From the IMG/VR virus record IMGVR_UViG_3300030451_004344, positions 1 to 34,940 of that record: a stretch of DNA of 34,940 nt; one strand, given 5' to 3'. Below the pieces are notes generated by a model. The model made no database searches. It was not told the origin of the DNA and saw nothing but the letters and a program-made list of their open reading frames with translations. Positions 1 through 34,940 of the stretch are shown here, in pieces. The first letter of the stretch is position 1. Each line of letters begins with the position of its first letter. Made by a program: the position numbers and the translations under genes. Origin of the DNA: a virus. Lineage: Duplodnaviria; Caudoviricetes.

Positions 1-87
1 CTAATGGTAATGTTGAAAAATTGTATGAAATCGCTAACAAACGGGAGGAGGCATAAGCCTCTTCCAGAAAGGAGAATCAAATGAAAA
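1..87 (+). repeat. Left cassette flank, copy 1 (matches 34376-34462); contains the 3' end of the upstream gene, a hairpin and an RBS
   Basis: Positions 1-78 identical to 34376-34453, one mismatch (A79/G34454), then AATGAAAA shared. Confidence 0.97.
44..83 (+). promoter_or_regulatory. Hairpin + RBS element (GGAGGAGGC-ATAA-GCCTCTTCC-AGAAAGGAGAATCAAATG)
   Basis: 9-bp stem with the upstream TAA in the loop; variant at 34110-34149 shows a compensatory A-T/T-A change. Confidence 0.75.
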
Positions 88-545
88 ATAATAATATTAA
101 AGTTTATAGTAACAAGGATTATGTAAAGTTTCATAATACAAAGGCTGATGTTGTAACAAGGGTATGTCTAAAGACCGGTAAAATTAATATTTATCACCCT
201 TATGGTAGGTCAGTAATGACAAAAACACATTCAGAATTGCATTATACTGACATCGAATGTAATGGAGATAGAATGATAACAATAACTGATTCATTGCATA
301 TAGATGAGGTTACAAGTGGTCCAGAGCAAGAAGAAGATTCATATGTAGATACTCTATATGTAGATGAGGGTGCAGATGATACAACTGGACTATTCACTGT
401 ATACACAGAGAAAGATGCTCTCAAACTTATCAGAGATTTGATGAGTGAGGATGAGCATTTACCAGAGTATTACAAAAAAGGTGATTGCTCTGACGATGAT
501 GCTTTTGAGTATGCATCAAATCATTACTCTATATATCGGAAATAG
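81..545 (+). CDS. Hypothetical early protein with acidic C-terminal half (cassette allele A)
   Basis: 154-aa ORF with strong AAAGGAG RBS; no recognisable motif. Confidence 0.8.
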   Translation: MKNNNIKVYSNKDYVKFHNTKADVVTRVCLKTGKINIYHPYGRSVMTKTHSELHYTDIECNGDRMITITDSLHIDEVTSGPEQEEDSYVDTLYVDEGADDTTGLFTVYTEKDALKLIRDLMSEDEHLPEYYKKGDCSDDDAFEYASNHYSIYRK

Positions 546-685
546 TCGAAACCCCTTCGGGGGTCTGCAAGGATTGGTCACCTTGTACTGATGAGACAGA
601 CCGACAATTTAAATAGGAGAATCAAAATGTCAGAACGATGCGAAGAAATATACGATTACTTGGTTGACTTTGGTATAGCAACCGA
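540..685 (+). repeat. Right cassette flank, copy 1 (matches 34795-34940)
   Basis: 146 bp with one mismatch (T608/C34863). Confidence 0.97.
545..604 (+). ncRNA. Type II hammerhead ribozyme with loop I pseudoknot; predicted cleavage after C565
   Basis: Stem II GUC(545-547)/GAC(595-597); GAAA 548-551; stem III CCCC-UUCG-GGGG; GUC triplet 563-565; stem I UGCAAGG/CCUUGUA; CUGAUGA 588-594; loop UUGGUC (574-579) complementary to GACCGA (599-604). Confidence 0.93.
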
Positions 686-815
686 GAAAGAGATTAGTCT
701 TGTAACCTCTATCAATGGGACTAATGAAGATAGCCTTAACGCTATACTCTATAGTAGAACCGGATATAGAAGTGTTGAACAGTTACAAGAATGTGAACCT
801 TTTTTAGAATGTTAG
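627..815 (+). CDS. Small acidic hypothetical early protein (62 aa)
   Basis: ATG 627 follows TAGGAGAATCAAA; the track start at 591 lies inside the ribozyme core. Confidence 0.8.
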   Translation: MSERCEEIYDYLVDFGIATEKEISLVTSINGTNEDSLNAILYSRTGYRSVEQLQECEPFLEC

Positions 816-826
816 GAGAATCGATA

Positions 827-1057
827 ATGACTTATTGTGATAACTGGAGAGTGTGTGATAATTGTGAGAGCCCATTTCAAGAGGGTTGGACTATAGGTGA
901 AACAAATTATTACTGCTCTGAAAAATGTATGGATAGCCACGGGATAGTAACATATAAGCAGTTCTTGGAGAGCTATGCTGATGAAGGTGACTCGTATTGG
1001 TCATCTTGGGCAGACCAAGAAGAGTGTACTACCGGATGTTGTGAGGAGGTAGAGTAA
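827..1057 (+). CDS. Cys-rich acidic hypothetical protein (CxxC...CSxxC, probably Zn-binding)
   Basis: AGGAGAATC RBS before ATG 827; CDNC and CSEKC motifs. Confidence 0.75.
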   Translation: MTYCDNWRVCDNCESPFQEGWTIGETNYYCSEKCMDSHGIVTYKQFLESYADEGDSYWSSWADQEECTTGCCEEVE

Positions 1058-1245
1058 TGATTTGTGTATGTGGTAGTGAATTATGCGATTCATATTGGGA
1101 TACCGATGGAATCGAATGGGAAAGTTATACTTGTAAAAATGAAAAATGTGAGCGTGTCTATAGAGTAGATATTACCAGAAATAGTGATGATTTGGATCTT
1201 GACATTGATAGACATTGGAACACAATAACAGAGGAGATAAAGTAA
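1057..1245 (+). CDS. Small zinc-ribbon-like hypothetical protein
   Basis: CVC...CKNEKC; TAATG coupling; GGAGG RBS. Confidence 0.75.
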   Translation: MICVCGSELCDSYWDTDGIEWESYTCKNEKCERVYRVDITRNSDDLDLDIDRHWNTITEEIK

Positions 1246-1400
1246 TGGAGAAACTAGAAATCCCAATTTGCCTTTATGATGATGGTAAGTATCAAACTGA
1301 ACCCCAATATGACTTTGAACAAATGTCTAACGATTTAGAGGATATTGTACTTGATAAACTTGGTAAGGATATTTGTGTTGTGATAAAGGAGATAGAGTAA
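1245..1400 (+). CDS. Small acidic hypothetical protein (51 aa)
   Basis: GAGGAG RBS and TAATG coupling at both ends. Confidence 0.7.
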   Translation: MEKLEIPICLYDDGKYQTEPQYDFEQMSNDLEDIVLDKLGKDICVVIKEIE

Positions 1401-1645
1401 TGGTAGAAATAGTTGATTTGCCTCAAGATGCTTGTGTAATTTCTGATGTGGATTCAGTACAATTAAAGAAGTTACGTAAGGACTTGGGGTTTAACCAAGA
1501 ACAGATGGCCAAGGCTTTAGGTCTTTCTGGTAAGCATTATATTTCAATGCTAGAGAGTGGTAAGTATAAGTTTACACCATCTGTTACGAAGTGTATGGAG
1601 TATATTAGAGTCCTATTAGAATTAGGACATAGAATCAATCTGTAG
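1400..1645 (+). CDS. XRE/Cro-family helix-turn-helix regulator
   Basis: LKKLRKDLGFNQEQMAKALGLSGKHYISMLESGK is a typical HTH_3 pattern; AAGGAG RBS and TAATG start at 1400. Confidence 0.88.
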   Translation: MVEIVDLPQDACVISDVDSVQLKKLRKDLGFNQEQMAKALGLSGKHYISMLESGKYKFTPSVTKCMEYIRVLLELGHRINL

Positions 1646-3430: not shown

Positions 3431-3436
3431 ATGTAA

Positions 3437-3553
3437 TTATTTAGTGGTCAGCCAAATAATCACTTGAAAGCATAGCAAATAAATAAACAGAGATAGTACC
3501 AACATACCAATCCATACAAAAATATTAATCAGAATCTGCTTTATTAAATTCAA
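3437..3553 (-). CDS. 38-aa hydrophobic membrane peptide (not in ORF track)
   Basis: Manual translation from TTG: MNLIKQILINIFVWIGMLVLSLFIYLLCFQVIIWLTTK; AAGGA upstream. Confidence 0.5.
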   Translation of the reverse strand: MNLIKQILINIFVWIGMLVLSLFIYLLCFQVIIWLTTK

Positions 3554-3719
3554 TCTCTATTTCCTTCTTAAATTTGTCCACTACATCTGGGACAAAGTGA
3601 CTGAAAGCCTCAATCGCAGACAAGGCCATCTTAAATAATTTTTTATACAATTCTAATCGTTTCTGGAGGAGTTTTACTTGCTCCCCCAGATTTCGATTCT
3701 CATTAACAAGGTGTTCCAT
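3525..3719 (-). CDS. Coiled-coil hypothetical protein
   Basis: TAATG-coupled to the upstream gene. Confidence 0.65.
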   Translation of the reverse strand: MEHLVNENRNLGEQVKLLQKRLELYKKLFKMALSAIEAFSHFVPDVVDKFKKEIEIEFNKADSD

Positions 3720-4087
3720 TAGAATGGAATATCTACATCCGATGTTGTAGTTTTCTTTGGTGCTTGACCGAACTGAATCATATTCCCGTTGCTATCGTAA
3801 GGTTTATAATCCGGTTTATCCGGGTCGTAGTGATTAGCAACCAGCTCATTTAATGTCTCTCTGTGCTCTGTTGGAAACCACACTATATCTTCATACTTGA
3901 TAGTGTCACCATTCTTATTAACATAAGGCTTGTTTAACTCTTTGCTTGGAGAAACAACAAATATGCCGTTAGCACCATCAATTACCTTACATTCTTTGAT
4001 ACCGAATCCATCCACCTCAACCGTACACGTTGCTTTAACTTTTGGGGATTGAGTCCAGTTTACGTTAGTCATTTGAGTTATCTTCAT
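3719..4087 (-). CDS. SpoVG-like nucleic-acid-binding protein with SSB-type acidic tail (probable phage SSB)
   Basis: KATCTVEVDGFGIKECKVIDGANGIFVVSPSK...YEDIVWF resembles SpoVG; ends in SDVDIPF. Confidence 0.75.
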   Translation of the reverse strand: MKITQMTNVNWTQSPKVKATCTVEVDGFGIKECKVIDGANGIFVVSPSKELNKPYVNKNGDTIKYEDIVWFPTEHRETLNELVANHYDPDKPDYKPYDSNGNMIQFGQAPKKTTTSDVDIPF

Positions 4088-4097
4088 TTACGTTCCT

Positions 4098-4412
4098 TTA
4101 TTTACGCTTTTTTGTTTCTATTAAAGCAGACAACAACATAAGATAGGCTACTGAATCGTGTATCCGACCTTGTACATCCTCTCTTTGTGAATCGTGACCA
4201 CAACAGAATGCACCGATGCCGTCAATATGCTTTAGTAAGTAAGTTAAAATTGCTTTCTCTGGTGATGATTCGGTTTGTATTGCTACTCGCTCAAAGTTTG
4301 CGAATACATTGTCCTCATCACGTGCATACTCTTTCTGTCCAGAGTTTCTAACCTTTTCAATCTCTGGTATGAATACCCTCTCGATAAAATGTTTCATCTC
4401 ATTGTGTGTCAT
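4098..4412 (-). CDS. Nucleotide-modification-associated / DUF1599-like all-helical protein
   Basis: KEYA...FANFERVA...KHIDGI...RIHDSVAYLMLL pattern. Confidence 0.6.
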   Translation of the reverse strand: MTHNEMKHFIERVFIPEIEKVRNSGQKEYARDEDNVFANFERVAIQTESSPEKAILTYLLKHIDGIGAFCCGHDSQREDVQGRIHDSVAYLMLLSALIETKKRK

Positions 4413-4861
4413 TGATTCTCCTTAAATACATTGTTTATATGTTTGAATTTTGTTGATGGTATCTTCTCTACTACCTTTATGTCATATTGGTTACGAGTCT
4501 TTGTAGTTCTTCCCCCGTATTCTATCTCGAATACTTGTCCAGTGACCTCATACACAAAAGTCCCATCGAGATATGTAATTACCAGATAAGATGATTGATT
4601 AGAGCCTTCTTTATGTTCCCTTAATTTTTTCATCTTATTATGATCTATAACTATGTACTCATACTGGTCACTTTTTATTTGTCTATGCTTATATTCAACA
4701 AACCCAATTACATCCTTACCATCTACCATTATAAAATCTATCGGTGCAAATTTAGATGGGTACTCGATAAGTTGTTGTTTATACTTATGATTAAACATCT
4801 GCATAAACATCTCTTGGTCTGCTTTACCTTGCATCCAATCTTTATTAGTCGAGTTCGTCAA
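4409..4861 (-). CDS. PD-(D/E)XK-fold nuclease-like protein
   Basis: PIDF...FVEYKHR motif. Confidence 0.7.
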   Translation of the reverse strand: MTNSTNKDWMQGKADQEMFMQMFNHKYKQQLIEYPSKFAPIDFIMVDGKDVIGFVEYKHRQIKSDQYEYIVIDHNKMKKLREHKEGSNQSSYLVITYLDGTFVYEVTGQVFEIEYGGRTTKTRNQYDIKVVEKIPSTKFKHINNVFKENQ

Positions 4862-6142: not shown

Positions 6143-6409
6143 CTATACCCCTTGGTATTTAACGAGTTCACTTGCCCTCTCTGCTGTACAACGTGGGCAA
6201 TTTTTATGTTCTTTCCCTATTCGGGGAATATGTTTTCCATAATAAAAAGTCCTATAAGTACGTATTGAATTAATATAACTGTGCTCATAGGTTTGTTCGC
6301 ATACTTCACAATACTTAATCAGATCATCAGTTTTCTCTGTATGGAAGTTTGTTTCTGTTGTAAGAATATTTGAAAAATATGTTTTGTATGCTGATTTCCA
6401 ATCGCTCAT
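6143..6409 (-). CDS. Zinc-finger hypothetical protein
   Basis: CEVC...CPRC. Confidence 0.65.
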   Translation of the reverse strand: MSDWKSAYKTYFSNILTTETNFHTEKTDDLIKYCEVCEQTYEHSYINSIRTYRTFYYGKHIPRIGKEHKNCPRCTAERASELVKYQGV

Positions 6410-7203
6410 ATATCTAACCTAAATGTATCGGCCAAAGGTGTACGCTGACGTGGCTTACCTAGACCGGTTTCAAAACCTTTATAAAAACGCTTAAACATTT
6501 TATACGTATCACGTACCAACTCTTCATCATATTGATATTCATATGTTTTTTGAACAGATGAGGGTGGTGTATTACGTGTATAATCTTTCTTCGCCCAGAT
6601 GATACCAAGCCTATCAATCTTTCTGTCTTGTGTAGCATCCCATAGCATTTTATAAATTGACAATTGACACTGCATAGATGGTTGATTTTCAACAACTTTA
6701 GATGTTTTGATATCCAACATCCAAAGCTCACCATCTATCTCTGCTACCATATCACATCTACCAGCAAACGGGAACTTGTAGTTCTTTCCTTTTTTGGCTA
6801 ATGAATGCAGTAATTTTTCTGTAACAACAACCTTTGGTTTGTGCAGATTATGCCAAGCTACATAAGATGCTAGTGCTTTCTTGATCTCCACAGATGCTTT
6901 GTAAGTTGGGTAATATCCTTTGCCCTTTATATGGTCCAGAGGATTTGGAGATATCTTAATCTGCTCACCATCTAACATCTTCTCTATACAATCGTGAACG
7001 AATGTACCAACCTCACTAGCTTGACCATTATATTTAGTATGCCTATCATAATCACCTTGTGATTGCTCTATATACCACTTTAAAAGAAATGGTGCAGTAG
7101 GCATTCCATATGCTGGAATGGTTGAAACAGAGGGAAAATAAACTCCCTCTGCAACCTCGTATACTCGCCCATAAGTAGTATCCGGGACTATCCGTGGGTA
7201 CAT
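6406..7203 (-). CDS. PD-(D/E)XK (RecB/Cas4-like) exonuclease, probable annealase partner
   Basis: PSVSTI, GTFVHDCIE, FAGRCDMV, LDIKTS and QLSIY motifs. Confidence 0.88.
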   Translation of the reverse strand: MYPRIVPDTTYGRVYEVAEGVYFPSVSTIPAYGMPTAPFLLKWYIEQSQGDYDRHTKYNGQASEVGTFVHDCIEKMLDGEQIKISPNPLDHIKGKGYYPTYKASVEIKKALASYVAWHNLHKPKVVVTEKLLHSLAKKGKNYKFPFAGRCDMVAEIDGELWMLDIKTSKVVENQPSMQCQLSIYKMLWDATQDRKIDRLGIIWAKKDYTRNTPPSSVQKTYEYQYDEELVRDTYKMFKRFYKGFETGLGKPRQRTPLADTFRLDI

Positions 7204-7856
7204 TATGCTACCCCGTTAGATGGTTCCGATAGAATTGCTCTCTTATAGCCAAGTAAAGTGTTTAGATGCTGAATGTTTTTAGCTGTAGGGGTTTTTAGTC
7301 TTTGGTAGTATTTTATATGAGTTTCAATTTGACCCAAATTATCACAATAAACCTCTTCATATGTCTTACCCTCACCAGCACCACACGGGATGATCAATTG
7401 ATCATTATAAAGAACGTGCCCCTCAGTAGAAAGGGAATCTACCGAGGGTGCACTTGCCTCTTTAGAGATCGGAGAATCGCTTACGGAAGGCAAATCTTCT
7501 CCATCATAAATATAGTGTCCCAAACCAAACATAGCTATACACTTAACCAAACACCTCATCTTTGCTTTATTAATATCAGCAGAAGTAGGATTGGCTATAG
7601 CTTTGTTTCTAAAATCCATAACCGGGAGCCACATTGAACGGCCACAATCACCAATCTGGATTGAGCAGTTAACTGTTACGGTCCCATTCTCTTCATAGTT
7701 GTTGTCATAAAACGTATACGTAGCATTAGGGTACTTCTCCATTAGTATTCCCCAAGCACTTGCCCAAGATAAATAACTTAAACCATTCTTTTCTTTTTTA
7801 AGATTATTACAATCTACCGAGGACAAGGTAGACCAGATTTCACTATAATTATTCAT
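7203..7856 (-). CDS. Sak/DUF1071 single-strand annealing protein (Rad52-like)
   Basis: LSYLSWASAW, MWLPVMDFRNKAI, DINKAKMRCLVKCIAMFGLGHYIYDGEDLP. Confidence 0.9.
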   Translation of the reverse strand: MNNYSEIWSTLSSVDCNNLKKEKNGLSYLSWASAWGILMEKYPNATYTFYDNNYEENGTVTVNCSIQIGDCGRSMWLPVMDFRNKAIANPTSADINKAKMRCLVKCIAMFGLGHYIYDGEDLPSVSDSPISKEASAPSVDSLSTEGHVLYNDQLIIPCGAGEGKTYEEVYCDNLGQIETHIKYYQRLKTPTAKNIQHLNTLLGYKRAILSEPSNGVA

Positions 7857-7994: not shown

Positions 7995-8846
7995 ATGAAA
8001 TCGGAGAATCATTCAATAAATTTACCTATTGGAGAATTATCTAACCTTACAAACAAAGGGAATATGGGTAAATTATATATAGCAAATTCAGTTAGAGAGT
8101 CTTTACTCTCTAGCACAAAGTCGTTAGTTGAACTTTCCGAAGAAATTAACGTATCAGAAAATACAATCAGAAGATGGGCAAACGGCACCTTTCTCACAAT
8201 AAGAAGAAACAACCTTAATGCATTAGCCATAGCTTTAAACAAAAAAATTGTGTTTAATAATGATACAGTAGAACTTGAAGACATTACTATTCCGACAGAG
8301 ATAGAAACTGATCAGAACCTACAAGGAGACACAATGATATTAAATGCTGAGGAGATAATAAAAGACTTACGTGACGATAAACGTGACCTTCGTGACACAA
8401 TAACAAATTTAAAAGAAGAAAATAAAGCTCTAATCACTACAATGCAATCTATGGAAAAAACAATTGCAAACTTCAAAGAGGAGCTTGAGTCTTGTACAGC
8501 ACAAATGCCACTTTTAGAGCTTGACAAATATCAAAATGTAGTCGATATAAAGGCTGGAGTGTTTATTAATGTTAGTCCATTATATGCAAAAAAATTAGGA
8601 TACACTGTATTTGAGTTAGTTGGTGCTAGTTGGGAAATTGTTACACCTCCAGAAGATAGGCCAATGTGGCAAACAGACATTGAAAGACAATTAGCAGAAG
8701 AAAATAAACCGTGTGTTGTTCCTACTGAATTACAAAATCACAGTGTAAGACTTCTTCATAGGGATGGCCATATTGTCAATGCTGAATGTCAGACCAAAAA
8801 AATATCTAGCGTGATATCAATGAATGAATGTTACTTTAGTGATTAA
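7995..8846 (+). CDS. Putative repressor: XRE-like HTH + coiled coil + C-terminal PAS domain
   Basis: SLVELSEEINVSENTIRRWANG HTH; heptad stretch at residues ~118-168; PAS-like FINVSPLYAKKLGYTVFELVGASWEIVTPPEDR...VRLLHRDGHIV; divergent from the lytic operon and upstream of attP/int. Confidence 0.8.
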   Translation: MKSENHSINLPIGELSNLTNKGNMGKLYIANSVRESLLSSTKSLVELSEEINVSENTIRRWANGTFLTIRRNNLNALAIALNKKIVFNNDTVELEDITIPTEIETDQNLQGDTMILNAEEIIKDLRDDKRDLRDTITNLKEENKALITTMQSMEKTIANFKEELESCTAQMPLLELDKYQNVVDIKAGVFINVSPLYAKKLGYTVFELVGASWEIVTPPEDRPMWQTDIERQLAEENKPCVVPTELQNHSVRLLHRDGHIVNAECQTKKISSVISMNECYFSD

Positions 8847-9055: not shown

Positions 9056-9994
9056 ATGTATAAAAAAAATGGTAAATACTACTCTAGCTTTATGTGCAAT
9101 AACTGTTGCAACAAGCAAATAAGAGTTCCACTTTTAAAAGACAAGAAGTTGTCAAAAAACCTTGAAGAAAAATTAAAGTTCGAACACCTATCGGGTCAAT
9201 ATAAAAAACAAATTTATTTGCAAGATGCCCTAAAAACTTATAAAAACTCTAAAAATGACATCACTGATAAGCAAAAAAACATACGTGTTTTTAATGTAGT
9301 AAAGCTATTTGAGTTCGCTAAAGCTAAAAAAATCAAAGATATAACACCAGCTCATTGTGTAGATTATATATTTAGTTTGGGTGATTTAGCAGTATCTACT
9401 GTTAACCGTAAGAAACAATATATCAAGAGCTTTTTTGATTTCTGCATACAGATGGATTGGTTGGATAAGAATCCAGCTCTACGATTAAGACCAGAGCGTG
9501 ATAAGACGGCTAAAAAGAGACGATACTTTAATGATCAAGAAATTAATCAAGTTATGGAATACGCTGGTGACTATAAAGAGTTCTGGACTTTTTTACTTGA
9601 AACCGGTATACGTTGCACTGATGTCTGGTTATTATCAACGGCCAACTTTAATGGTAATATATGTAGGTGGTTTGAGAATAAAACCAAACGATGGATATCT
9701 ATACCTATAAATGAAACTGCAATGGATATTGTAAAAACAAAGAAGGGATTATTGTTTCCACAGTTTGGGACCAATTTTTCTAAACGTAAAGCAGTACAAC
9801 ATTTAAAAAGCATTGTCCCGGATGCTAATCATCATACATTTCGCCACACCTATGCCCAAAGAGCTGGTAACAAGGGGGTACCAAAAGAAATTTTACAAAG
9901 GCTCCTTGGGCACAGTAGTGTAACTACAACGGAAATCTATTTTAACGAATTTAATAATAACGAGACTTTACAAGATTGGGTTAACGAACTATAA
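9056..9994 (+). CDS. int: Tyrosine integrase
   Basis: ETGIR, HTFRH, LLGH and TTEIY catalytic motifs; SAM-like core-binding domain ending NPA; AAAGGAG RBS. Confidence 0.96.
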   Translation: MYKKNGKYYSSFMCNNCCNKQIRVPLLKDKKLSKNLEEKLKFEHLSGQYKKQIYLQDALKTYKNSKNDITDKQKNIRVFNVVKLFEFAKAKKIKDITPAHCVDYIFSLGDLAVSTVNRKKQYIKSFFDFCIQMDWLDKNPALRLRPERDKTAKKRRYFNDQEINQVMEYAGDYKEFWTFLLETGIRCTDVWLLSTANFNGNICRWFENKTKRWISIPINETAMDIVKTKKGLLFPQFGTNFSKRKAVQHLKSIVPDANHHTFRHTYAQRAGNKGVPKEILQRLLGHSSVTTTEIYFNEFNNNETLQDWVNEL

Positions 9995-10774: not shown

Positions 10775-11223
10775 AGTTTATTAGCCTCTAGGTAGTGTTT
10801 AGGAGTTCCTTTCCCACCCTCTGTATTGAAAAATTTCTTCCAGTAATTGGCTCTACCCTCTGGAGTCTTTGGAATTGCTCCCGGTTGTCTGTAATAATAA
10901 ATTCTACACATTGCTATTGCTACTGCTATATTAGATGTTACACTAAATACTGGATCGTCTTCTATATAGCCTAATTTATATAACTGTTCTATAAGAGGTT
11001 TACGGTACGAGATGTAGTTCTCCCAGTTATCATTTATTGTGTTGATTTCAATCTGCCAAAAAGACTTCGCTGGGCCATTCCCCATTTGTTCCAGATGCCT
11101 ATAGCCAGTTTCAGCATTCCCAGTTTCAAATACAAGCTCCATAGCCTCTTTACTGTATGGAATACCAGCATCATCTAGTCTTTCTAACACCTCTACTATG
11201 AGTCCTCTGATTGTTTCCTTCAT
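10765..11223 (-). CDS. Putative endolysin (lysozyme/transglycosylase-like fold)
   Basis: TGNAETG..HLEQMGNGPA.SFWQIE...AMCRIYY...YWKKFFNT.GGKG; adjacent to membrane proteins. Confidence 0.75.
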   Translation of the reverse strand: MKETIRGLIVEVLERLDDAGIPYSKEAMELVFETGNAETGYRHLEQMGNGPAKSFWQIEINTINDNWENYISYRKPLIEQLYKLGYIEDDPVFSVTSNIAVAIAMCRIYYYRQPGAIPKTPEGRANYWKKFFNTEGGKGTPKHYLEANKLWI

Positions 11224-14200
11224 TAATTACCCCTTCTAGCTTTTCTCTGTGCTTTGTTGAATTTACCTAGTAACCTTCTGTAGTTTTTAGTATCTATTGT
11301 TTTACTTGCACGTGCCTCATTTAAATATTTTCTAAACAGTTTTCTGTCTAGCTTTTTATCTTCTGCTACATCAAGCATTTTTTTTGCTTTTTCATATGAT
11401 CTGTAGTCACTCTTCCCTTTGACAAACTGTCTTAATACTGGAATTTTACTAATATCTGGAAGGGTGCCTCTGCCAGTTTCTATTGCTGTAGTTACATTGT
11501 TTGCTACAAACTTTCCAGCACCACCGGTATATGATTCTATGATGTGCTCTATAGTCTCTGGACTTACATCTAAACCAGTTAAATCATACAACCCTTTAGT
11601 TCCACGGTCAATGGTTGGAGAAACACTTTTAAACCCTCTCTCGTAATCCTTAATAGTCTTACCATAATAATTTTTATCTTTCATTATTTTACCACCAAAA
11701 AAGTTTTTATTTTCACTCAACTGTATAGCTGGATCAAATATAGTAGGTGCTAAAAACTGGGATAAACTTCCTCCAGAGATAGGTGCAAAGGCATCTACAG
11801 CATTTTTAGCTGTTCTAGTTATTAACTCGCCATATGTAGTGTCTCCAAAAATAGTTTGTTCTACTGCACCACCAACACCAAAAAACCAGTTCCAACCGTA
11901 AGGCAGTTTTATTGAGAAGGCTTTTTTGTTTGGAAGTAAAATCATAAAATAATTGTCTTTATTATTTTCATCGAACTGGTTCCACTCATCTTCATCCCAG
12001 TATCTATTTAATGCAGACATTAAAAATCCAAAAGCAGTTATACTTGATGCAACTTTTTTACCATTCTTGCTTTTTAAAGCTCTCCATATTCTATTTGAAC
12101 CTTGCATACCAGCATTAGAAAATGTCCATAAAGTATTCATTGCTGTACCCCATTCACCTTTACGGTTAAAGTTTACAGTAAGGTCTTTTGCATAGTGTGC
12201 TGACTTCTTTTTACTTATTCCAGAATCCACTAAATTTTTATAAGTTGATAGACGTACAGCGTTTTCTATTATCTCATTATAATTTTCAATAAAATCACGT
12301 ATTTTTTGTACTGTTGAGTTTCCTTCTTGTGCACGTTTTATATCTTTTTCTATGTCAGCCATTTTTTGCTCAATCGTACCAAAATCTAACCAACCAGCTT
12401 TACCACCATTAGCTTTAAACTCTTCATATATTTTAGCCCACTCGTGGCTACCATCTTTACGCAGTAAACTTCTAATGCCACTCATAGCTAGTTTTATATC
12501 TTTAACAATTTTACGTTTGATATTTTTCTTACCTTCAGATGTCATATTAAGAAGTGCCGTCTGTAGGTCACGCTCAAAGTTTGTTATCATAAACTCTGGA
12601 TTTATGGTAGTATTTATAGCACGATAATATGTGTTGAACTTATTTAAAAATCGCATTGCACCATTCTGTGTTGTAGCATTAAGATTTTTCATAGCTCTTA
12701 ATAAATCTTTATCTCTAATCTTAATTACATATTGATCGCCATTAACATAAGTTTGGAACTCATCATCTTTTAGGTTCGTTGGACTATAGCTAACTTCACC
12801 TTCTTCATTATAAACTGGCTTAAACTTTCTTTTAGTTACATTCCATATTGGTGATTCATTATTTTGTACCATTTTTAAGAATGCATTCCCAACCTTATTA
12901 TTTTCAGCTATATAAACTGCACTTTCATAATCTATAACAGCTTGTATAAGTGGGTTCTGTGCTTTTGATTCTCTACCAAATGCAGACATAATACCAGTAG
13001 ATGTAGTGCTAAAACCTTTTCCAGAAGTGTGTACATATCCATCTTCTTCTAAAAGGCCTTTTAGTGGTACATAGTTTTTAAAATTAGATTTTAAATTTTG
13101 GTAAGTCTCTTTATCTATAAGACCGGCATCTAGTCTAACTTTTAGAGCTTTATTAGTTACTTCTCTGTATAATTCAAGAGCATATTTATGGATACCAGTT
13201 CCACGATATTTTTTTAATATCGCATTTGCATCAGCATCAGTCATACCAGAACCAGTTTCTAACTTTGGATTCTTTTCTTGCATTGCAAGGTTACGCTCTA
13301 TAGCGTGACGGGCATATAAATATTCACCTATATCATCAAGACTGTGACCATCTTTTTTAGCTCTGCTTAAAATAGATTCTTTGCCATCATACACCTTCTT
13401 ACGAAATTTTTCTAACTTTGTTGATACTGTGCCGTGTAGAGTTTCTGCAACTTGAATTGCATCCTCATCTTCTTGTAAGTCTGGAACACTTTCTTGTACT
13501 AGCTTTAAGCGATTTAATTTATCAATAAACCTACGCTCAAATCGTTGAGGTATAGTCATATCAGTTAAGGCATCTAGCTGATATGATTCTTGGCTATCAA
13601 TACTTACAACATTGTCATCAAATACTACATAGTTTTCACTATCACCAAACTGACCACGAACACCACCTTGTGCTGGAAAGCGTATACCATCTATACCAGC
13701 CTCAAGTAAAAATTCAGATGCTTTTTTCTTACTACCATTCATAAGTATAGCTATTAAGGTGTAGACTTCACTTCCTCTTTTCTCAAACTCTTGCATAGAG
13801 TCTTTAAACTGATACACATCAACACCTTCAGCTAGGTGTGCTCTATATTCTGATTTTCTTTTTCGGAGGAGCTTATTAATCTTCTCCATTTGTTCTGGAG
13901 TAAGTGAGTCAGTCCAGCTCATATAATCATAGTCTGCTGGTTTTTTACCTTTATGTAAGGTTACTTTGTATAATGATCCGTTCTTCTTGGTACCACCATT
14001 AACTTCATCTTTTTCAATTGGGATATAATTTCTAGCTACGTCCTCTTTAGATGAAAAATATAGACCAAAGCCATATGCTTGGTTGCCTTCACCAGAACCT
14101 ATTCTGGAACTATCGAATTGATCAAATTTATAGGGGGAGCCGTGAAAGGCTGTTATTTGATAGGATTCTCCCTTTTCGGACTTGTTCCGGTCAGTAGTCG

Positions 14201-17200
14201 GTCGCTGTTTTCGCTCTGCTTTTTCATAGCGTTGAATTGCATTCTGCGTTTCTTCACGAACGGATCGTCCTTGCCATATTTGGCTTCCAGATTTTTGAGA
14301 TTTTCTTTGTATATATTCATCTATATTTTCCCTTCCAACTACTTCAGTAATATAAGAATAAAAGTATGAATCCTCTACATCATTTCTTTTATCTAGTTCA
14401 CGGGCTACATCTTCTAGTTCAGCATTCTTTTCTTTGATATAATTATCTAAAAATTTAGGGTCTTTTAATGACTCTCTAAATTCCATATCATATCGTGCTG
14501 TTATCTCTGGAATTATCTGTAATCGAATCCCAGTATAAAGCCCTTTTTTATTTCTTTTCTCACGGGATAATGTGAACCCATCGTGACCACGACCACGAAT
14601 AAAAGAAACAATACCTTCAACTTCAGATTCACTTAAAGGATTTTTAAATTCAACTTCTATACCCGGACGAGCATTTTCACTGACTTCATTTGCTCTTAAT
14701 ACTTTTGAAAAGAAAGTATCAACTTGATTATTTTCTTTAGATATTTTTAATACTTCATTGTAAAATTCTACTGGAACGTAGCCCTTTTCAACTGTTAGTT
14801 CTGTATCAAATGATTTCTCTTGATCTGGAATAACCTCTCCAGAATCATCTAAATATGTGTATAGACCTTTGGAGTCTTCATAGCGAATAGCCCTAATGTT
14901 ATTATCTTTAGAGGCTACAGCTTTTAAGCGTTCTCTGGCTTTTTCAATATTGACTTTTGTTGGTTCTTCAAGTTGTTGAATTGAGTGACCTACTTGTTGT
15001 CTATCATAATCTCGTGGTTTTGTGCCACCACCTTTATATTTAGGAAGATATTCAACTATAAGATTATCTTCAAAACTTCCACCTTCACCAGAGACAGTAG
15101 TCCAGTTATTTTTAGTCCAATTCTCTTTTTCTAAAAACCAATCTACTGCTTGTAGGTCAATAGATTGAGTGTCCTCAAAGCCTTCAACTCCCATTTCTTT
15201 TAATTTTTGTTCTGCATATTTATAAGCATCTCCACCCACACCAAATTGACCAGTTATATATGTTCCATCAGCAGAATATTTTCCTTTTACTCCTTGCTCT
15301 GCTTGTACTGGAATTCTTTTCCCACCAGACCTTCTTTGCCAAGCCCTTGCTGACCAGACATCTATAGTAGCGTGATCAGATTTACCAAGGATATTTAAAG
15401 CAAAGTTTTTTGCTTTAGGAGATGATCCCGGTTCAGTTAAAATCCATCTACTTGCTAGTACATCTAATACTGCTGGAGAATTAGTTCCATATTTAGCTCC
15501 ATTAGATTTTTCTGGGACTGGTCCTTTATATTTAGAAGGAACACCACCATCTTCAATATATTGTACATATTGCTGAACGATGTCATCATAACCACCTTTA
15601 TTAAAAGTCTCTAAGGCTTCAAGAGCATTTTTAAAATTATCCGATACTGGAGTTTGGGGAGAAGTCGCTCCCAATAGTTCTCCAAATATTTGAGTTTGAC
15701 CACCGAATTGTTGATGAATTTTAGCTTTTAAAGCACTATACCAAGTTGCTTGTTCAATAATAGCTTGAGCATTCTTATCACCAGCCTTTGCTCTTTCTGC
15801 TACTTCAATAAAATCATTAACAGCTTTCTTCCCTAAACTGGTAACCATTCGCTTATATACTGGAGATTTTTTATTGGGTGTCTTTCCTTTATATTGCTGA
15901 AAAGTATAGGGGATTGGTTTGTATTCTACTTTAGGATTTTTCCCAGAAGTATCTACCTTATTAACTTCTAATTTTGCCCAGCCATCATTTACGGGATGTT
16001 TTGATTTATAAAGCTGGACTTTAGATAAGACCTCTTTCTTATTAAAATCAGTTCCCTCAACAGCAGTATTTATTTTTTTCTTTTCAAGCGTACTAAATTT
16101 TACATTCTTAGGGTTTATAGTTTTTCGCTCTGATCGCTCTACTTTTAATTCTTTCTTTAATGAAAATGACTCATCTGTACTGGTAGCCCCTTCACCTACT
16201 TTAGCGTACCCAGCATCTTCCCACATCTTTCTTATTTTAGGATCAATTTTACTTCTGCCGATAATGTTGTTTAGAAACTGCTTAACTCTTTGTAATATTT
16301 TTGCAATTGTGGAGTTCTCATAAAGACCCTCATCAAAATAATATTGAGTGCCTTCTTTTTCGAATAGCTCTTGCTTTGTAAGTGTTTCACCCTCTCTTAC
16401 TTTTTCAGCGTAATATTCCTCCCAAATCGACTTTTCTTCTGAACTGAGGTTACGGTATGCATTTCCATAAAACTCTTCTATAACAGTATCTGGACGGGCT
16501 CCTTTGTATAGGTTAATAAGAACTTGTCCATTCTCTTCTAATGTTGAACCTAAAACTTGTGCTTCTTTAGTATCAGCCTCTAACCCTTCACCTACAAAAA
16601 ATTTGTCTGGATTTTCACCTTTAGCTTTTAAAGTCTCACGTGTTATTGTCCTTACTTCACTAATAAATTGTAATGCAGAATTATTTTCAAAAGCCTCTGG
16701 ATTTTGTTTGGCAAACCTTTCAGCCATATCAAGCGTAACATCTTCAAAGTCTCCGGTATCTCTAGCTCTTTCAATCTCTATACCTATCTTTGATACTTTG
16801 AATTTTTCATCAGCCTTTGATTGTGGTATACCGGCTACCTCTGATATTGAACTAGACCCAGCACCGAGCACTACCCCAGCATAAAATTCTTGACCTAACT
16901 GTGACCAATCAAAATCTTTAAATAGCTCCTTTTCTTCTTGTGTAAGTTGTTCTGCTATTTGTTGATTAAGACCTTGAAAAGCCTCTGTTGTACCTTCCGT
17001 TGCTGATGTTAATAAAACACTTGCAATTCTACTTTTTAAGCCCGGAAAACCTTTTAAAATTCTATCAATACCGGTTCTTTCTAATGAGGCATTTAGAGCA
17101 CCAACAATTAAAGGTATACTTCTTCTTAAATGTTCTGGAACACGTTTACCAGTACGCTCTTCATATTGAAGAATTTCAGACTTAGTTTGCCCACCTTCAA

Positions 17201-17834
17201 TAGCACCCATAAGTAAGGCTCCAGCAAAAGGATTAGCAATAGTTGTTGCAATCATACCACCCATTAGAGGTATATTCTCTCCAGCAACCATAAACAACCT
17301 TTTAGGGTCTAAATAACCAAATATAGACTCTGGGGGTCTGGTAAATCTTCCAGTAGCTGGTTTTGCCTCAATCTCACTAAAATAATTAACTATATCATCA
17401 GCTTTTTCTTTTAGATACTTTTCTCTTTGTTCATCTGTTGTAATGTTTTTCTTGATCTCTTCTGGCATATTTTCAAACATTCCAGATTGATCCATATTTT
17501 GTATAATTGTAGGTATGATATTAACTGCATTCCCTAAAGCTACACCGGCATTTTTAAATCCTCTGGTCCATACATCCCCAACAGAATCAACCTCATCTTT
17601 ACGTCTTAATATTTGCTCTACATCTGTTGCATCTGGCTTTACATCTATAGGCTGTATAGACTCTGGAGATATAATAGGAGAGTAGGGTTTAAATTTAGGC
17701 TCTTCTGGTTTTTGTATTTGAGCGTTGTATTCTGGATATTTTTTTAATATTGAATTTCCAAGAGTATCGTCATCTAAATCATTATACTCTGGGTATTTAG
17801 CTCTTATGCTGGATACAAATTCTTTAAATGTCAT
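11223..17834 (-). CDS. Large polyvalent / DNA-ejection protein (degenerate zincin-like, glycosylase-like, ART-like and LPD38-like domains)
   Basis: 2203 aa; FHGSPYKFDQF...IGSGEGNQAYGFGLYF; ATSPQ...PKAKNF...TIDVW...LQAVDW; KDLTVNFNRKG...IKLPYG...NKNFFG.KI...SPETIEHIIESYTGG. Confidence 0.85.
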   Translation of the reverse strand: MTFKEFVSSIRAKYPEYNDLDDDTLGNSILKKYPEYNAQIQKPEEPKFKPYSPIISPESIQPIDVKPDATDVEQILRRKDEVDSVGDVWTRGFKNAGVALGNAVNIIPTIIQNMDQSGMFENMPEEIKKNITTDEQREKYLKEKADDIVNYFSEIEAKPATGRFTRPPESIFGYLDPKRLFMVAGENIPLMGGMIATTIANPFAGALLMGAIEGGQTKSEILQYEERTGKRVPEHLRRSIPLIVGALNASLERTGIDRILKGFPGLKSRIASVLLTSATEGTTEAFQGLNQQIAEQLTQEEKELFKDFDWSQLGQEFYAGVVLGAGSSSISEVAGIPQSKADEKFKVSKIGIEIERARDTGDFEDVTLDMAERFAKQNPEAFENNSALQFISEVRTITRETLKAKGENPDKFFVGEGLEADTKEAQVLGSTLEENGQVLINLYKGARPDTVIEEFYGNAYRNLSSEEKSIWEEYYAEKVREGETLTKQELFEKEGTQYYFDEGLYENSTIAKILQRVKQFLNNIIGRSKIDPKIRKMWEDAGYAKVGEGATSTDESFSLKKELKVERSERKTINPKNVKFSTLEKKKINTAVEGTDFNKKEVLSKVQLYKSKHPVNDGWAKLEVNKVDTSGKNPKVEYKPIPYTFQQYKGKTPNKKSPVYKRMVTSLGKKAVNDFIEVAERAKAGDKNAQAIIEQATWYSALKAKIHQQFGGQTQIFGELLGATSPQTPVSDNFKNALEALETFNKGGYDDIVQQYVQYIEDGGVPSKYKGPVPEKSNGAKYGTNSPAVLDVLASRWILTEPGSSPKAKNFALNILGKSDHATIDVWSARAWQRRSGGKRIPVQAEQGVKGKYSADGTYITGQFGVGGDAYKYAEQKLKEMGVEGFEDTQSIDLQAVDWFLEKENWTKNNWTTVSGEGGSFEDNLIVEYLPKYKGGGTKPRDYDRQQVGHSIQQLEEPTKVNIEKARERLKAVASKDNNIRAIRYEDSKGLYTYLDDSGEVIPDQEKSFDTELTVEKGYVPVEFYNEVLKISKENNQVDTFFSKVLRANEVSENARPGIEVEFKNPLSESEVEGIVSFIRGRGHDGFTLSREKRNKKGLYTGIRLQIIPEITARYDMEFRESLKDPKFLDNYIKEKNAELEDVARELDKRNDVEDSYFYSYITEVVGRENIDEYIQRKSQKSGSQIWQGRSVREETQNAIQRYEKAERKQRPTTDRNKSEKGESYQITAFHGSPYKFDQFDSSRIGSGEGNQAYGFGLYFSSKEDVARNYIPIEKDEVNGGTKKNGSLYKVTLHKGKKPADYDYMSWTDSLTPEQMEKINKLLRKRKSEYRAHLAEGVDVYQFKDSMQEFEKRGSEVYTLIAILMNGSKKKASEFLLEAGIDGIRFPAQGGVRGQFGDSENYVVFDDNVVSIDSQESYQLDALTDMTIPQRFERRFIDKLNRLKLVQESVPDLQEDEDAIQVAETLHGTVSTKLEKFRKKVYDGKESILSRAKKDGHSLDDIGEYLYARHAIERNLAMQEKNPKLETGSGMTDADANAILKKYRGTGIHKYALELYREVTNKALKVRLDAGLIDKETYQNLKSNFKNYVPLKGLLEEDGYVHTSGKGFSTTSTGIMSAFGRESKAQNPLIQAVIDYESAVYIAENNKVGNAFLKMVQNNESPIWNVTKRKFKPVYNEEGEVSYSPTNLKDDEFQTYVNGDQYVIKIRDKDLLRAMKNLNATTQNGAMRFLNKFNTYYRAINTTINPEFMITNFERDLQTALLNMTSEGKKNIKRKIVKDIKLAMSGIRSLLRKDGSHEWAKIYEEFKANGGKAGWLDFGTIEQKMADIEKDIKRAQEGNSTVQKIRDFIENYNEIIENAVRLSTYKNLVDSGISKKKSAHYAKDLTVNFNRKGEWGTAMNTLWTFSNAGMQGSNRIWRALKSKNGKKVASSITAFGFLMSALNRYWDEDEWNQFDENNKDNYFMILLPNKKAFSIKLPYGWNWFFGVGGAVEQTIFGDTTYGELITRTAKNAVDAFAPISGGSLSQFLAPTIFDPAIQLSENKNFFGGKIMKDKNYYGKTIKDYERGFKSVSPTIDRGTKGLYDLTGLDVSPETIEHIIESYTGGAGKFVANNVTTAIETGRGTLPDISKIPVLRQFVKGKSDYRSYEKAKKMLDVAEDKKLDRKLFRKYLNEARASKTIDTKNYRRLLGKFNKAQRKARRGN

Positions 17835-33563: not shown

Positions 33564-33711
33564 AGGTATTATAAGCTCGAATTGGTCTTTTTTGTTGCCT
33601 CGTTCCGTCCAGAGTTAAAATTATTTTAACTTTTTATTAGGATGTAATGTTAAAACCATTATAACTTTCGTAAGCCAACAACGGCAAACAACTAAACGAT
33701 TGGAGAATCAA
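33564..33711. promoter_or_regulatory. Divergent early/late intergenic promoter region
   Basis: AT-rich gap between divergent operons; minus-strand TATAAT at 33568-33573; plus-strand TATAAC near 33660. Confidence 0.5.
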
Positions 33712-34431
33712 ATGAAAAGAGAAACATCAAGTTATTTAGAGAATGACCCAAACTATGTACCATCAGCTAAATCACCAGTAGCACCTAAAAAGAAGAATGG
33801 TATGAAAGTACAAGTAACAAAAAAAGAAATGGAATTTTTAAATCAAATATCAACAAGTGATTTCGCAAACGAAGGCTGGGAAGAGGCAGAAGATGGTGCA
33901 GTGGGTGATTGGGTAGGTGCAGATGGAAAAGTAAACCTTCCAACAGACCAATATAATATGAAAGTTGTTAGGGGTCTTATGTCATCCTTAAAGGAGAAGG
34001 GTGTTATAGAGTTAAGAGGGACAGAAGTAGGTCACGAAGGTCAACCCATAACTTGGGTAAATGTCAGTGTTGAATTTTGTGATATTGAAAATAATTGTTT
34101 AAAAAACTTGGAGGTGGCCAAAGCCACTTCCAGAAAGGAGAATCAAATGGAAGTACAAGCAACTAGAGCATTCACATTAACACCGACACACGAGGACTTA
34201 CTAACGAGATACATAGGAGTAAAAGTTCCGGTAATCTTTGTAGAGTATGGTGTAGAGGGATATAGAGAGACAACCCACAGAGTAACATCTTTTGAGGAGT
34301 TAAATCTGTTGAATAAAAAGTACACCAATGCAACACCTCAAGATGCATTTGTGTTACAAAATCTCTCAATGTTTCCTAATGGTAATGTTGAAAAATTGTA
34401 TGAAATCGCTAACAAACGGGAGGAGGCATAA
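33712..34431 (+). CDS. First early ORF; apparently two genes fused in frame (second start at 34147)
   Basis: GGAGAATCAAATG at 33702-33714 and again at 34137-34149; MKVVRGLMSSLKEKGVIE suggests a winged helix in the first half. Confidence 0.75.
   Translation: MKRETSSYLENDPNYVPSAKSPVAPKKKNGMKVQVTKKEMEFLNQISTSDFANEGWEEAEDGAVGDWVGADGKVNLPTDQYNMKVVRGLMSSLKEKGVIELRGTEVGHEGQPITWVNVSVEFCDIENNCLKNLEVAKATSRKENQMEVQATRAFTLTPTHEDLLTRYIGVKVPVIFVEYGVEGYRETTHRVTSFEELNLLNKKYTNATPQDAFVLQNLSMFPNGNVEKLYEIANKREEA
34110..34149 (+). promoter_or_regulatory. Hairpin + RBS element variant (GGAGGTGGC-CAAA-GCCACTTCC-AGAAAGGAGAATCAAATG)
   Basis: Paralogue of 34419-34458 with a compensatory base-pair change and no stop codon in the loop. 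Confidence 0.75.
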
Positions 34432-34462
34432 GCCTCTTCCAGAAAGGAGAATCGAATGAAAA
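34376..34462 (+). repeat. Left cassette flank, copy 2
   Basis: Matches 1-87 with one mismatch. Confidence 0.97.
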
Positions 34463-34791
34463 TAGATAATAAGCAAGATGTAATTAATTGGTTGAAGAGG
34501 TTGAAGGATGACCATCCTCTATCTATACAAGAGATGATTGACTATCTAGAGTCTGATGAGGTTATAAGTAGTAGAACGGATTTAAATGACCCTATTGACG
34601 ATGATGGTTTTATAGCAATAAGGTGGCATCGAGATGATGTTCGTAATCAAGCTGAAGGTATGATGGTTCACCTAACAGATGATGAGGTCGACAAGGTGCT
34701 TTATGATGTCAGAAAATATCACGATGCATCAATCGGTGTTAGTTGGGATAATATCGACTTTCATATTCAACGGCTCGTAAACGAAAGATAG
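34456..34791 (+). CDS. Hypothetical acidic early protein (cassette allele B)
   Basis: 111 aa; W..DDV...LTDDEVDKVL......HDASIGVSWDNI pattern recalled from phage early proteins; no visible similarity to 81-545. Confidence 0.82.
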   Translation: MKIDNKQDVINWLKRLKDDHPLSIQEMIDYLESDEVISSRTDLNDPIDDDGFIAIRWHRDDVRNQAEGMMVHLTDDEVDKVLYDVRKYHDASIGVSWDNIDFHIQRLVNER

Positions 34792-34794
34792 ACT

Positions 34795-34940
34795 AAATAG
34801 TCGAAACCCCTTCGGGGGTCTGCAAGGATTGGTCACCTTGTACTGATGAGACAGACCGACAACTTAAATAGGAGAATCAAAATGTCAGAACGATGCGAAG
34901 AAATATACGATTACTTGGTTGACTTTGGTATAGCAACCGA
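34795..34940 (+). repeat. Right cassette flank, copy 2, including the truncated start (34882) of the 627-815 gene
   Basis: Matches 540-685 with one mismatch. Confidence 0.97.
34800..34859 (+). ncRNA. Type II hammerhead ribozyme, second occurrence; predicted cleavage after 34820
   Basis: Identical to 545-604. Confidence 0.93.

Follow-up and report, generated by a model that had tools for sequence, protein, structure and literature searches.

The stretch of DNA analyzed here, hereafter the window, is the whole of an IMG/VR virus record of 34,940 bases, and its features are collected in Table 1. PHROG and Pfam searches identified terminase, portal, capsid, tyrosine integrase, repressor, Sak and exonuclease genes in the window, and because an integrase and a repressor accompany a structural gene set, we regard it as a temperate tailed phage. 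The runs that best match the window are marine metagenomes; no RNA data set is among those listed, which carries no information on expression. The closest terminase among cultured phages is 36% identical, genome scans with the terminase and integrase queries found no prophage, and a search of the open-licence literature found no paper on this phage family. Outside the region described below, a repressor-like protein of 283 aa (7995-8846, + strand) has an N-terminal HTH and a coiled-coil middle, while its C-terminal part, judged by eye, presumably resembles a PAS sensor domain; such a sensor part is unusual in a phage repressor. A 2203-aa protein (11223-17834, - strand), whose last 750 aa match PHROGs 14770, 616 and 10691, families with no function assigned there, is possibly a large ejected (internal virion) protein.

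Table 1. The record, its bubble nodes, and the genes and nucleic acid elements discussed in the text
Feature	Position	Strand	Remarks
IMG/VR record IMGVR_UViG_3300030451_004344			34,940 bases; classed linear, 98% complete
Left bubble node	1-78 = 34376-34453		perfect over 78 nt; end of 94-aa gene, hairpin, RBS
Right bubble node	609-685 = 34864-34940		perfect over 77 nt; ordinary backbone into next gene
First early ORF	33712-34146	+	145 codons, no stop, in frame with next gene
94-aa gene	34147-34431	+	directly upstream of the slot
Intercistronic hairpin, 9 bp	44-65	+	upstream stop codon in loop; -16.9 kcal/mol
Translation-start motif GGAGAATC(A/G)AATG	71-83	+	repeated before most early-operon genes
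Allele A	81-545	+	154 aa; N-half (N_A) and C-half (C_A); matches no Pfam or PHROG family
DEVTSG codons, internal crossover point in A	303-320	+	hybrids X5, X7, P0009; standalone N_B genes end here
Allele B	34456-34791	+	111 aa; N_B module fused to C_B (PHROG 10258-like)
DEVISS codons, B's counterpart of the internal crossover point	34555-34572	+	
Type II hammerhead (RF02276)	544-605; shown again behind B at 34799-34860	+	overlaps A's stop codon
62-aa gene after the hammerhead	627-815	+	21 relatives in IMG/VR
76-aa gene	827-1057	+	another small gene in variants
51-aa gene	1245-1400	+	deleted or replaced in variants
Xre-type HTH gene	1400-1645	+	constant near operon end
PD-(D/E)XK exonuclease-like gene	6406-7203	-	PF12705, E 8e-9
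Sak single-strand annealing protein	7203-7856	-	PF06378, E 5e-41
Phage tyrosine integrase, generic	9056-9994		PF00589

The two ends of the record repeat each other around different genes. Positions 1-87 match 34376-34462 with a single mismatch at 79, and positions 540-685 match 34795-34940 with a single mismatch at 608, which bears out the terminal matches with one SNP per flank reported in the initial annotation. The left node is a single genomic copy shown twice, and the two arms of the bubble measure 530 nt and 410 nt, a difference of 120 nt. The annotation had also noted the likeness of the perfect matches to a k~77 assembler overlap; the 78- and 77-nt "arms" are likely such overlaps, with a length given by the assembler, and ordinary backbone continues past both of them.

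Six runs (X1-X5 and X7) were compared with the window, and the depth of the bubble was assessed in X1, in which 0.93 of the sampled words are present and which is possibly the source sample. There, allele A lies on a separate contig (49-569) at a depth of 21.1 and allele B on another (34424-34824) at 15.5, and both reach the right flank, whose depth is 31.9. The left-flank contig (34174-34453) ends at the first SNP (78/34453) and has a depth of 36.4; a bubble predicts the sum of the two arms, 36.6, and a terminal redundancy about 23.4. Since these depths are flat contig means (Logan contigs) from one run, and the X1 backbone depth declines over the operon (41.6 to about 28), with the right flank at 31.9 and not 36.6, the agreement is supportive rather than exact. 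A further X1 contig (594-843) passes 685 unbroken, and no break occurs at 34376 either. In a separately assembled short-read contig of 1496 nt (L026), the two upstream genes, allele A, the hammerhead and the next gene follow one another at 99.4-99.7% identity, with only A in the slot. The annotation had explained the record as a contig running once round a circular genome through both arms of a population bubble, and it had named a tandem duplication or terminal redundancy as what would overturn this. From the separate arm contigs that rejoin both flanks, the depth sums and L026 with A alone, we infer that the genome is circular, and no signal of a duplication or redundancy was seen. An assembly chimera, with one arm taken from a phage that shares the flanks, or a linear molecule carrying both genes would agree with the linear class of the record and with the fact that the arms are linked through short-read graphs alone. 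But both arms rejoin the same backbone on either side, their depths add up, redundancy fits the left flank badly, X1 is continuous at both expected break points and L026 has a single gene in the slot, so that such an artefact is very improbable. Alleles A and B are thus real alternative versions of one gene position, and the true genome size should be read as 34,375 bp with allele A or 34,255 bp with allele B, against 34,940 in the record.

The two alleles have unrelated sequences (best BLASTP E value 0.35), in agreement with the earlier description of two unrelated genes in one slot. Their divergence begins in codon 3, and the common right sequence begins within the last codons of A and 4 nt past the stop of B. 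Neither allele matched in the Pfam search. Allele A, the left flank and the 94-aa gene gave no match as queries against IMG/VR, from which near-identical records may have been withheld, and allele B had no match among GenBank phages, while an Atlas search with B returned only unnamed viral clusters (0.83-0.84). One metagenome scan yielded a single locus, L026. Compared with its homologs, allele B lacks at 34524-34528 a stretch of 75 nt present in X5 and X7, or of 28-32 aa in proteins P0002-P0006, and it ends a few codons before four of its homologs among P0002-P0006. Loose ends in X4 and X5 reveal a third, diverged allele with an A-like start after the left flank (86/96). The longest-contig sizes 8905 and 675 are common to P0033 and P0007 and to P0034 and P0003 (94-aa homologs and N_B types), which suggests further alleles of the same slot. 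The additional alleles that had been anticipated do exist, as hybrids running from B into A, as a short allele in X3 and as other genes in relatives.

The slot is not the only place at which the early operon varies. Besides the A/B slot, five variable positions were found, giving about six in all, and X1 alone has alternatives at five positions. The first early ORF is deleted in a variant joined from 33701 to 34137 through a 13-nt repeat at 33702/34137, and an X1 loose end at 34137 is the sequence just upstream of the first RBS. In the window this ORF reads through the hairpin and RBS into the 94-aa gene, giving a 239-aa read-through (33712-34431, + strand), and the same is seen in L026. The gene at 627 is skipped by a joint from 623 to 814 (depth 10.1 in X1) with a 10-nt RBS repeat at 614/813. 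The gene at 827 is replaced in X2, X3 and X4 through joints from 822/830 to 1055 with 143-159 other letters, and it is also replaced in the relative L005. The gene at 1245 is flanked by a 17-nt RBS/start repeat (1232-1248 and 1387-1403, 16/17 nt identical), and its variation is seen as an X1 loose end at 1387, joints from 1233 or 1247 to 1386, the latter in X3, and an X2 loose end at 1244; the joints from 623 to 814 and from 1247 to 1386 may each represent a deletion or a replacement. Behind the Xre gene, joints from 1660 to 1709/1712 in X1 and X2 mark an extra variable gene, with other extra genes in L005 and L028. Four of the five further positions have no ribozyme; the hammerhead is in contact with no variable position other than the gene at 627 and the A/B slot. 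This does not support the view of a single special slot.

The breakpoints of these variants gather at gene edges. Among the listed joints and loose ends, 22/33 breakpoints are at most 20 nt away from a start or stop codon, against an expectation of 19% from the share of positions in that zone, and 11/15 are so placed after neighbours on the main axis are merged. Two weak matches of 34-41 nt (X2 82-122, X5 34700-34733) were kept in this count and left unused for the alleles. The count takes in each end of a single event, and a lineage again when it appears in several runs, so that P values are overstated; with events that depend on one another and are subject to selection, the effect size matters more. 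The words common to the junction pairs at three whole-gene positions are 13, 10 and 16/17 nt long. The 8-nt core of the translation-start motif occurs six times on the + strand of the operon of about 2.95 kb, compared with three times (+) and twice (-) in the other 31.9 kb. Hairpins of 9-11 bp stand in the operon with no U-run on the + strand; that at 44-65 has a paralog at 34110-34131, and a hairpin-RBS block is repeated at 34110 and 34419 over about 45 nt with one compensatory change. On the - strand, six T stand 3 nt behind the hairpin at 34105-34131, a terminator-like arrangement for antisense transcription. No promoter-like site lies within the hairpin-RBS blocks, and promoter-like counts are at or near the shuffle level (3 versus 4.3, and 12 versus 7.5 +/- 2.3) for a sigma-70 model that may not be the host's.

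Relatives show the same kind of variation over larger distances. L005 is 87% identical over 15 kb aligned and 90-95% around the operon; its promoter region is joined straight to the gene at 627, three more positions differ, and both the hairpins and the hammerhead are absent. L028 (77%) retains the promoter region, the Xre gene and a convergent nuclease gene, while the operon otherwise consists of other genes, including ArdC. Farther away, runs of small genes end alike in KELV/EELV (L047:342-2195) and in ESEVN/ESEVK (L048:1595-2120), because a repeated SD-stop-start motif overlaps their ends; this appears to be the same short-repeat grammar in other phages.

Exchange also takes place inside the genes. 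Alleles A and B share an in-frame DEV(T/I)S stretch, of which 16/18 nt are identical. This match alone is borderline within the window, being equalled in 24/500 codon shuffles, and the claim of an internal crossover therefore rests on hybrids. Contigs in X5 and X7, from different studies, follow B to 34569 and then A from 317, and the protein P0009 is the same hybrid, with 55/57 residues of a B-type N-half and 76/80 of A's C-half. The annotation had stated that exactly one ORF is exchanged; the clean start and stop edges hold for A versus B, but these hybrids cross inside ORFs. N_B is a small-protein family of its own. Of the 22 members examined, 7 end one residue past the motif; others go on into the C-half of B or of A, into Cys-rich tails or into short ones. 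N_B has at least five different C-terminal partners, long or short. In L045 and L046 the DEV-motif codons form the Shine-Dalgarno of the next gene, and in L028 B's C-half is joined to an unrelated N-terminus. Taken together, A and B are likely to be fusions of formerly separate small genes, and the DEV codons probably represent a fossil Shine-Dalgarno gene junction that still acts as a crossover point. A GTG after the internal GAGGT was considered as a start codon of the C-half and rejected, as it is out of frame. No paper on fossil Shine-Dalgarno sites as crossover points was found in the open-licence literature.

These hybrids also bear on whether the operon is being reshuffled at all. If the sample held two or a few long-separated clonal lineages, the alternatives would be old one-off replacements with little ongoing shuffling, and an X1 SNP bubble near 34173 does split 20.2/15.2, near the A/B ratio, among variants that are unphased. 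However, the N_B-C_A hybrids, with halves 95-96% identical to their parents, occur in the runs of two other studies and in a protein record. The minor arms of other X1 bubbles have depths of 8-10, which implies more than two types, and in X3 N_B starts at three operon positions: directly behind the promoter region, behind the gene at 627 and, in the short allele, before the hammerhead. It seems that such clonal replacement is an improbable account, and slightly more so than the cassette alternative discussed below.

The right edge of the slot carries a self-cleaving ribozyme motif. The hammerhead scored 45.5 bits against an Rfam gathering score of 37, with a full-length model match, and a pattern scan gave stems of 7, 3 and 6 bp. 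Read from the sequence, stem II pairs GUC 545-547 with GAC 595-597, GAAA occupies 548-551, stem III spans 551-564, stem I pairs 566-572 with 581-587, and CUGAUGA lies at 588-594. Loop I (575-579) and the 3' tail (599-603) have 4-5 complementary bases and likely form a pseudoknot. Core and stems are intact, and the predicted cleavage site, after C565, leaves 61 nt up to the next start codon. In the B context the leftover bases at 34789-34800 can form a hairpin competing with stem II; a 4-bp hairpin was predicted there at a pair probability of 0.66-0.75, a weak prediction from a program that ignores pseudoknots. The hammerhead pattern had no match in IMG/VR, and Rfam searches found no ribozyme in 20 loci at the gathering score and none in 15 loci by E value. 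A pattern scan of the window and L005-L044 located hammerheads also in L017, L023, L038 and L026. L038, distantly related but with its operon laid out in a similar way, has another type II hammerhead at a stop codon, recognized by pattern only. Twister-P1 candidates are present in L028 (47.5 bits) behind the gene ending in B's C-half and in L047 (47.1 bits) behind the N_B gene, both below the Rfam gathering score of 67.2, and the twister candidate ends in the same RBS motif as the window hammerhead. By comparison of these loci, the ribozyme is apparently optional and exchangeable by class (hammerhead, twister candidate or none at one junction), and this fits selection for mRNA cutting and not a fixed homology arm; the ribozyme would then likely process mRNA. 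What speaks against this is that the right junction of the slot returns at the outermost hammerhead bases in four alleles (A, B, the X3 short allele and L028), so that the hammerhead edge is a frequent anchor.

Two other loci contain parts of hammerheads. In L023 (3300-3855), a complete type I hammerhead precedes the first early gene. Genes 2 and 3 each have a further copy of its 3' (substrate) half in front of them (about 3590-3618 and 3827-3855), led by another hairpin; a single enzyme strand might serve all three sites, as a discontinuous hammerhead, or these might be cassette leaders derived by recombination. In L028, a 261-aa gene is preceded by the 3' part of a hammerhead (stem I, CUGAUGA, the stem II strand and a possible pseudoknot; reverse complement 3436-3546) and followed by a hammerhead-like 5' start and then the twister-P1 candidate (reverse complement 4322-4440). 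With the gene serving as loop II, the two parts could make up a type III ribozyme, but local hairpins compete.

The initial annotation had proposed that structured-RNA boundaries serve as homology arms in a built-in cassette system with a ribozyme insulator. In a dedicated system of this kind, [RBS-ORF-stop-ribozyme] units would be mobile, perhaps in the form of small DNA circles that recombination between structured RNA-coding repeats releases and inserts again, as with the mini-circles of T4 PeSLs. The repeated hairpin-RBS block with its compensatory change is what one would expect of it. In addition, a ribozyme lies behind a slot-type gene in 3/4 judgeable lineages (the window, L028 and L047; not L005), the hammerhead parts before and behind one gene of L028 are what insertion through a ribozyme would leave, and a hammerhead 3' half precedes three successive genes of L023. 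But the left flank of the slot is unrelated in sequence to the right one, and the two therefore cannot excise it as a circle; four other variable positions have no RNA structure, the half-gene hybrids break the unit, and L005 varies with no ribozyme at all. Crossovers inside ORFs, the lack of the hammerhead in L005 and the twister candidates after slot-type genes in L028 and L047 likewise speak against RNA boundaries as homology arms. We therefore consider a dedicated cassette system unlikely. A broader version would treat the operon as a combinatorial library with a grammar, in which Shine-Dalgarno sites, live or fossil, are where RBS-ORF-stop units and half-genes recombine and ribozymes double as insertion handles for circular cassettes, and to this we give the same low standing. 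In that version hammerhead and twister would be swapped at a position defined by function, the split hammerhead of L028 would be a footprint of insertion, and chimeric proteins would be made on demand.

Variants that co-exist in samples differ by whole small genes or half-genes, with breakpoints clustered at start and stop junctions, and we prefer the reading that the early operon is reshuffled by short-homology recombination, the slot being one of about six positions and the phage's Sak and exonuclease the probable agent (probability about 0.7). Both genes that the annotation had counted on are indeed encoded (PHROG 298 and 659 for the exonuclease-like and Sak genes), and Sak is the likely agent by analogy with Rad52-like recombinases. 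Replacements would arise via long homology in conserved neighbours and deletions at short RBS repeats, and selection would retain only recombinants whose new ORF meets an RBS in frame; such selection for in-frame, RBS-led products may explain the clean one-ORF look of the exchange. A and B would have come from gene fusion, with the old Shine-Dalgarno junction at the DEV codons yielding hybrid proteins. The hammerhead would be a conserved passenger at one junction, dispensable for exchange and replaceable by another ribozyme class, and it may cut the polycistronic early mRNA so as to leave a downstream message that is 5'-OH and hairpin-capped. The minimal efficient pairing segments given in PMC3945230 are 23-27 bp for Red-beta and 31-34 bp for RecA; because the repeats of 10-17 nt fall below these minima, illegitimate recombination or slippage followed by selection could give the same junctions.

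Several known systems resemble this operon in part. Phage mosaic junctions have been described in PMC3029335 as short conserved boundary sequences at gene boundaries, with single genes as the usual modules. The window junctions likewise fall on short common sequences at gene boundaries (the three whole-gene words above and the internal 16/18 nt), but, set against the cases described there, the words here are a translation-start motif (10-17 nt), one of which is fossilized within fused ORFs, and variants occur side by side in single samples. The PeSLs of T4-type phages, as presented by Arbiol et al. (2010, PMC2839356), are elements of about 100 bp with a sigma-70 promoter and a terminator that lie on both sides of genes and give rise to mini-circles. 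The early operon is similar to the hyperplastic regions of that account in being early and ORFan-rich and in having single genes inserted, deleted or replaced at repeated intergenic elements, and the elements of both end in a Shine-Dalgarno and start codon, some with a stem-loop. Unlike PeSLs, the window repeats measure 10-45 nt and have neither a promoter nor a terminator above chance; no promoter-like site of the sigma-70 type lies in the repeated element, and in place of homologous elements of about 100 bp on both sides the longest operon repeat is about 46 nt.

For flexible phage modules, Bellas et al. (2020, PMC7468147) reported near-identical cores, co-existing variants in one metagenome and recombination. 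Several variants per position co-exist in one sample here too, as at the five positions of X1, but the modules of that report are mainly homologous genes, while A and B lack homology over their length and are half-gene mosaics. Rad52-like recombinases (Red-beta, RecT, Erf and Sak) drive temperate-phage mosaicism according to De Paepe et al. (2014, PMC3945230). The present phage is like those they discuss in being temperate, in carrying Sak, an exonuclease and a NinG/Rap-like nuclease, and in having mosaics smaller than functional modules, whereas several of its junction words are shorter than the Red-beta minimum. Type II pseudoknotted hammerheads beside changing prophage genes, with a proposed role in transcript processing, were described by Perreault et al. 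(2011, PMC3088659), and the window hammerhead has the same permutation and core, with a likely pseudoknot. It differs from those described there in being single, and in its presence, absence and apparent replacement by a twister at the same junction within one phage family. Hammerheads and twisters share gene contexts, and their purpose is presented as still open in PMC6765202 and PMC10085705.

Two further known arrangements were considered and rejected. A moron does not apply, as A and B replace each other inside the operon and have no promoter or terminator of their own above chance. An integron gene cassette was dismissed, as no repeated palindromic site lies behind the operon genes. Integrases of the IntI type carry an IntI-specific insertion.

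Precedents exist for all the parts, from boundary sequences, PeSLs and flexible phage genes to prophage hammerheads, and the notable parts are the shuffling of half-genes at a putative fossil Shine-Dalgarno site and the series of hammerhead, twister candidate and none at one junction. For the reading of virome contigs, terminal "repeats" of 77-78 nt around different genes should be taken as bubbles. With regard to the purpose of phage self-cleaving ribozymes, a question raised in PMC6765202, the series points to optional mRNA cutting and not to a role in recombination. The operon offers a compact natural case in which the shuffling of genes and half-genes can be read at base resolution from co-existing variants, and fusion at old ribosome-binding junctions may be a route by which phages of this kind acquire new small proteins.
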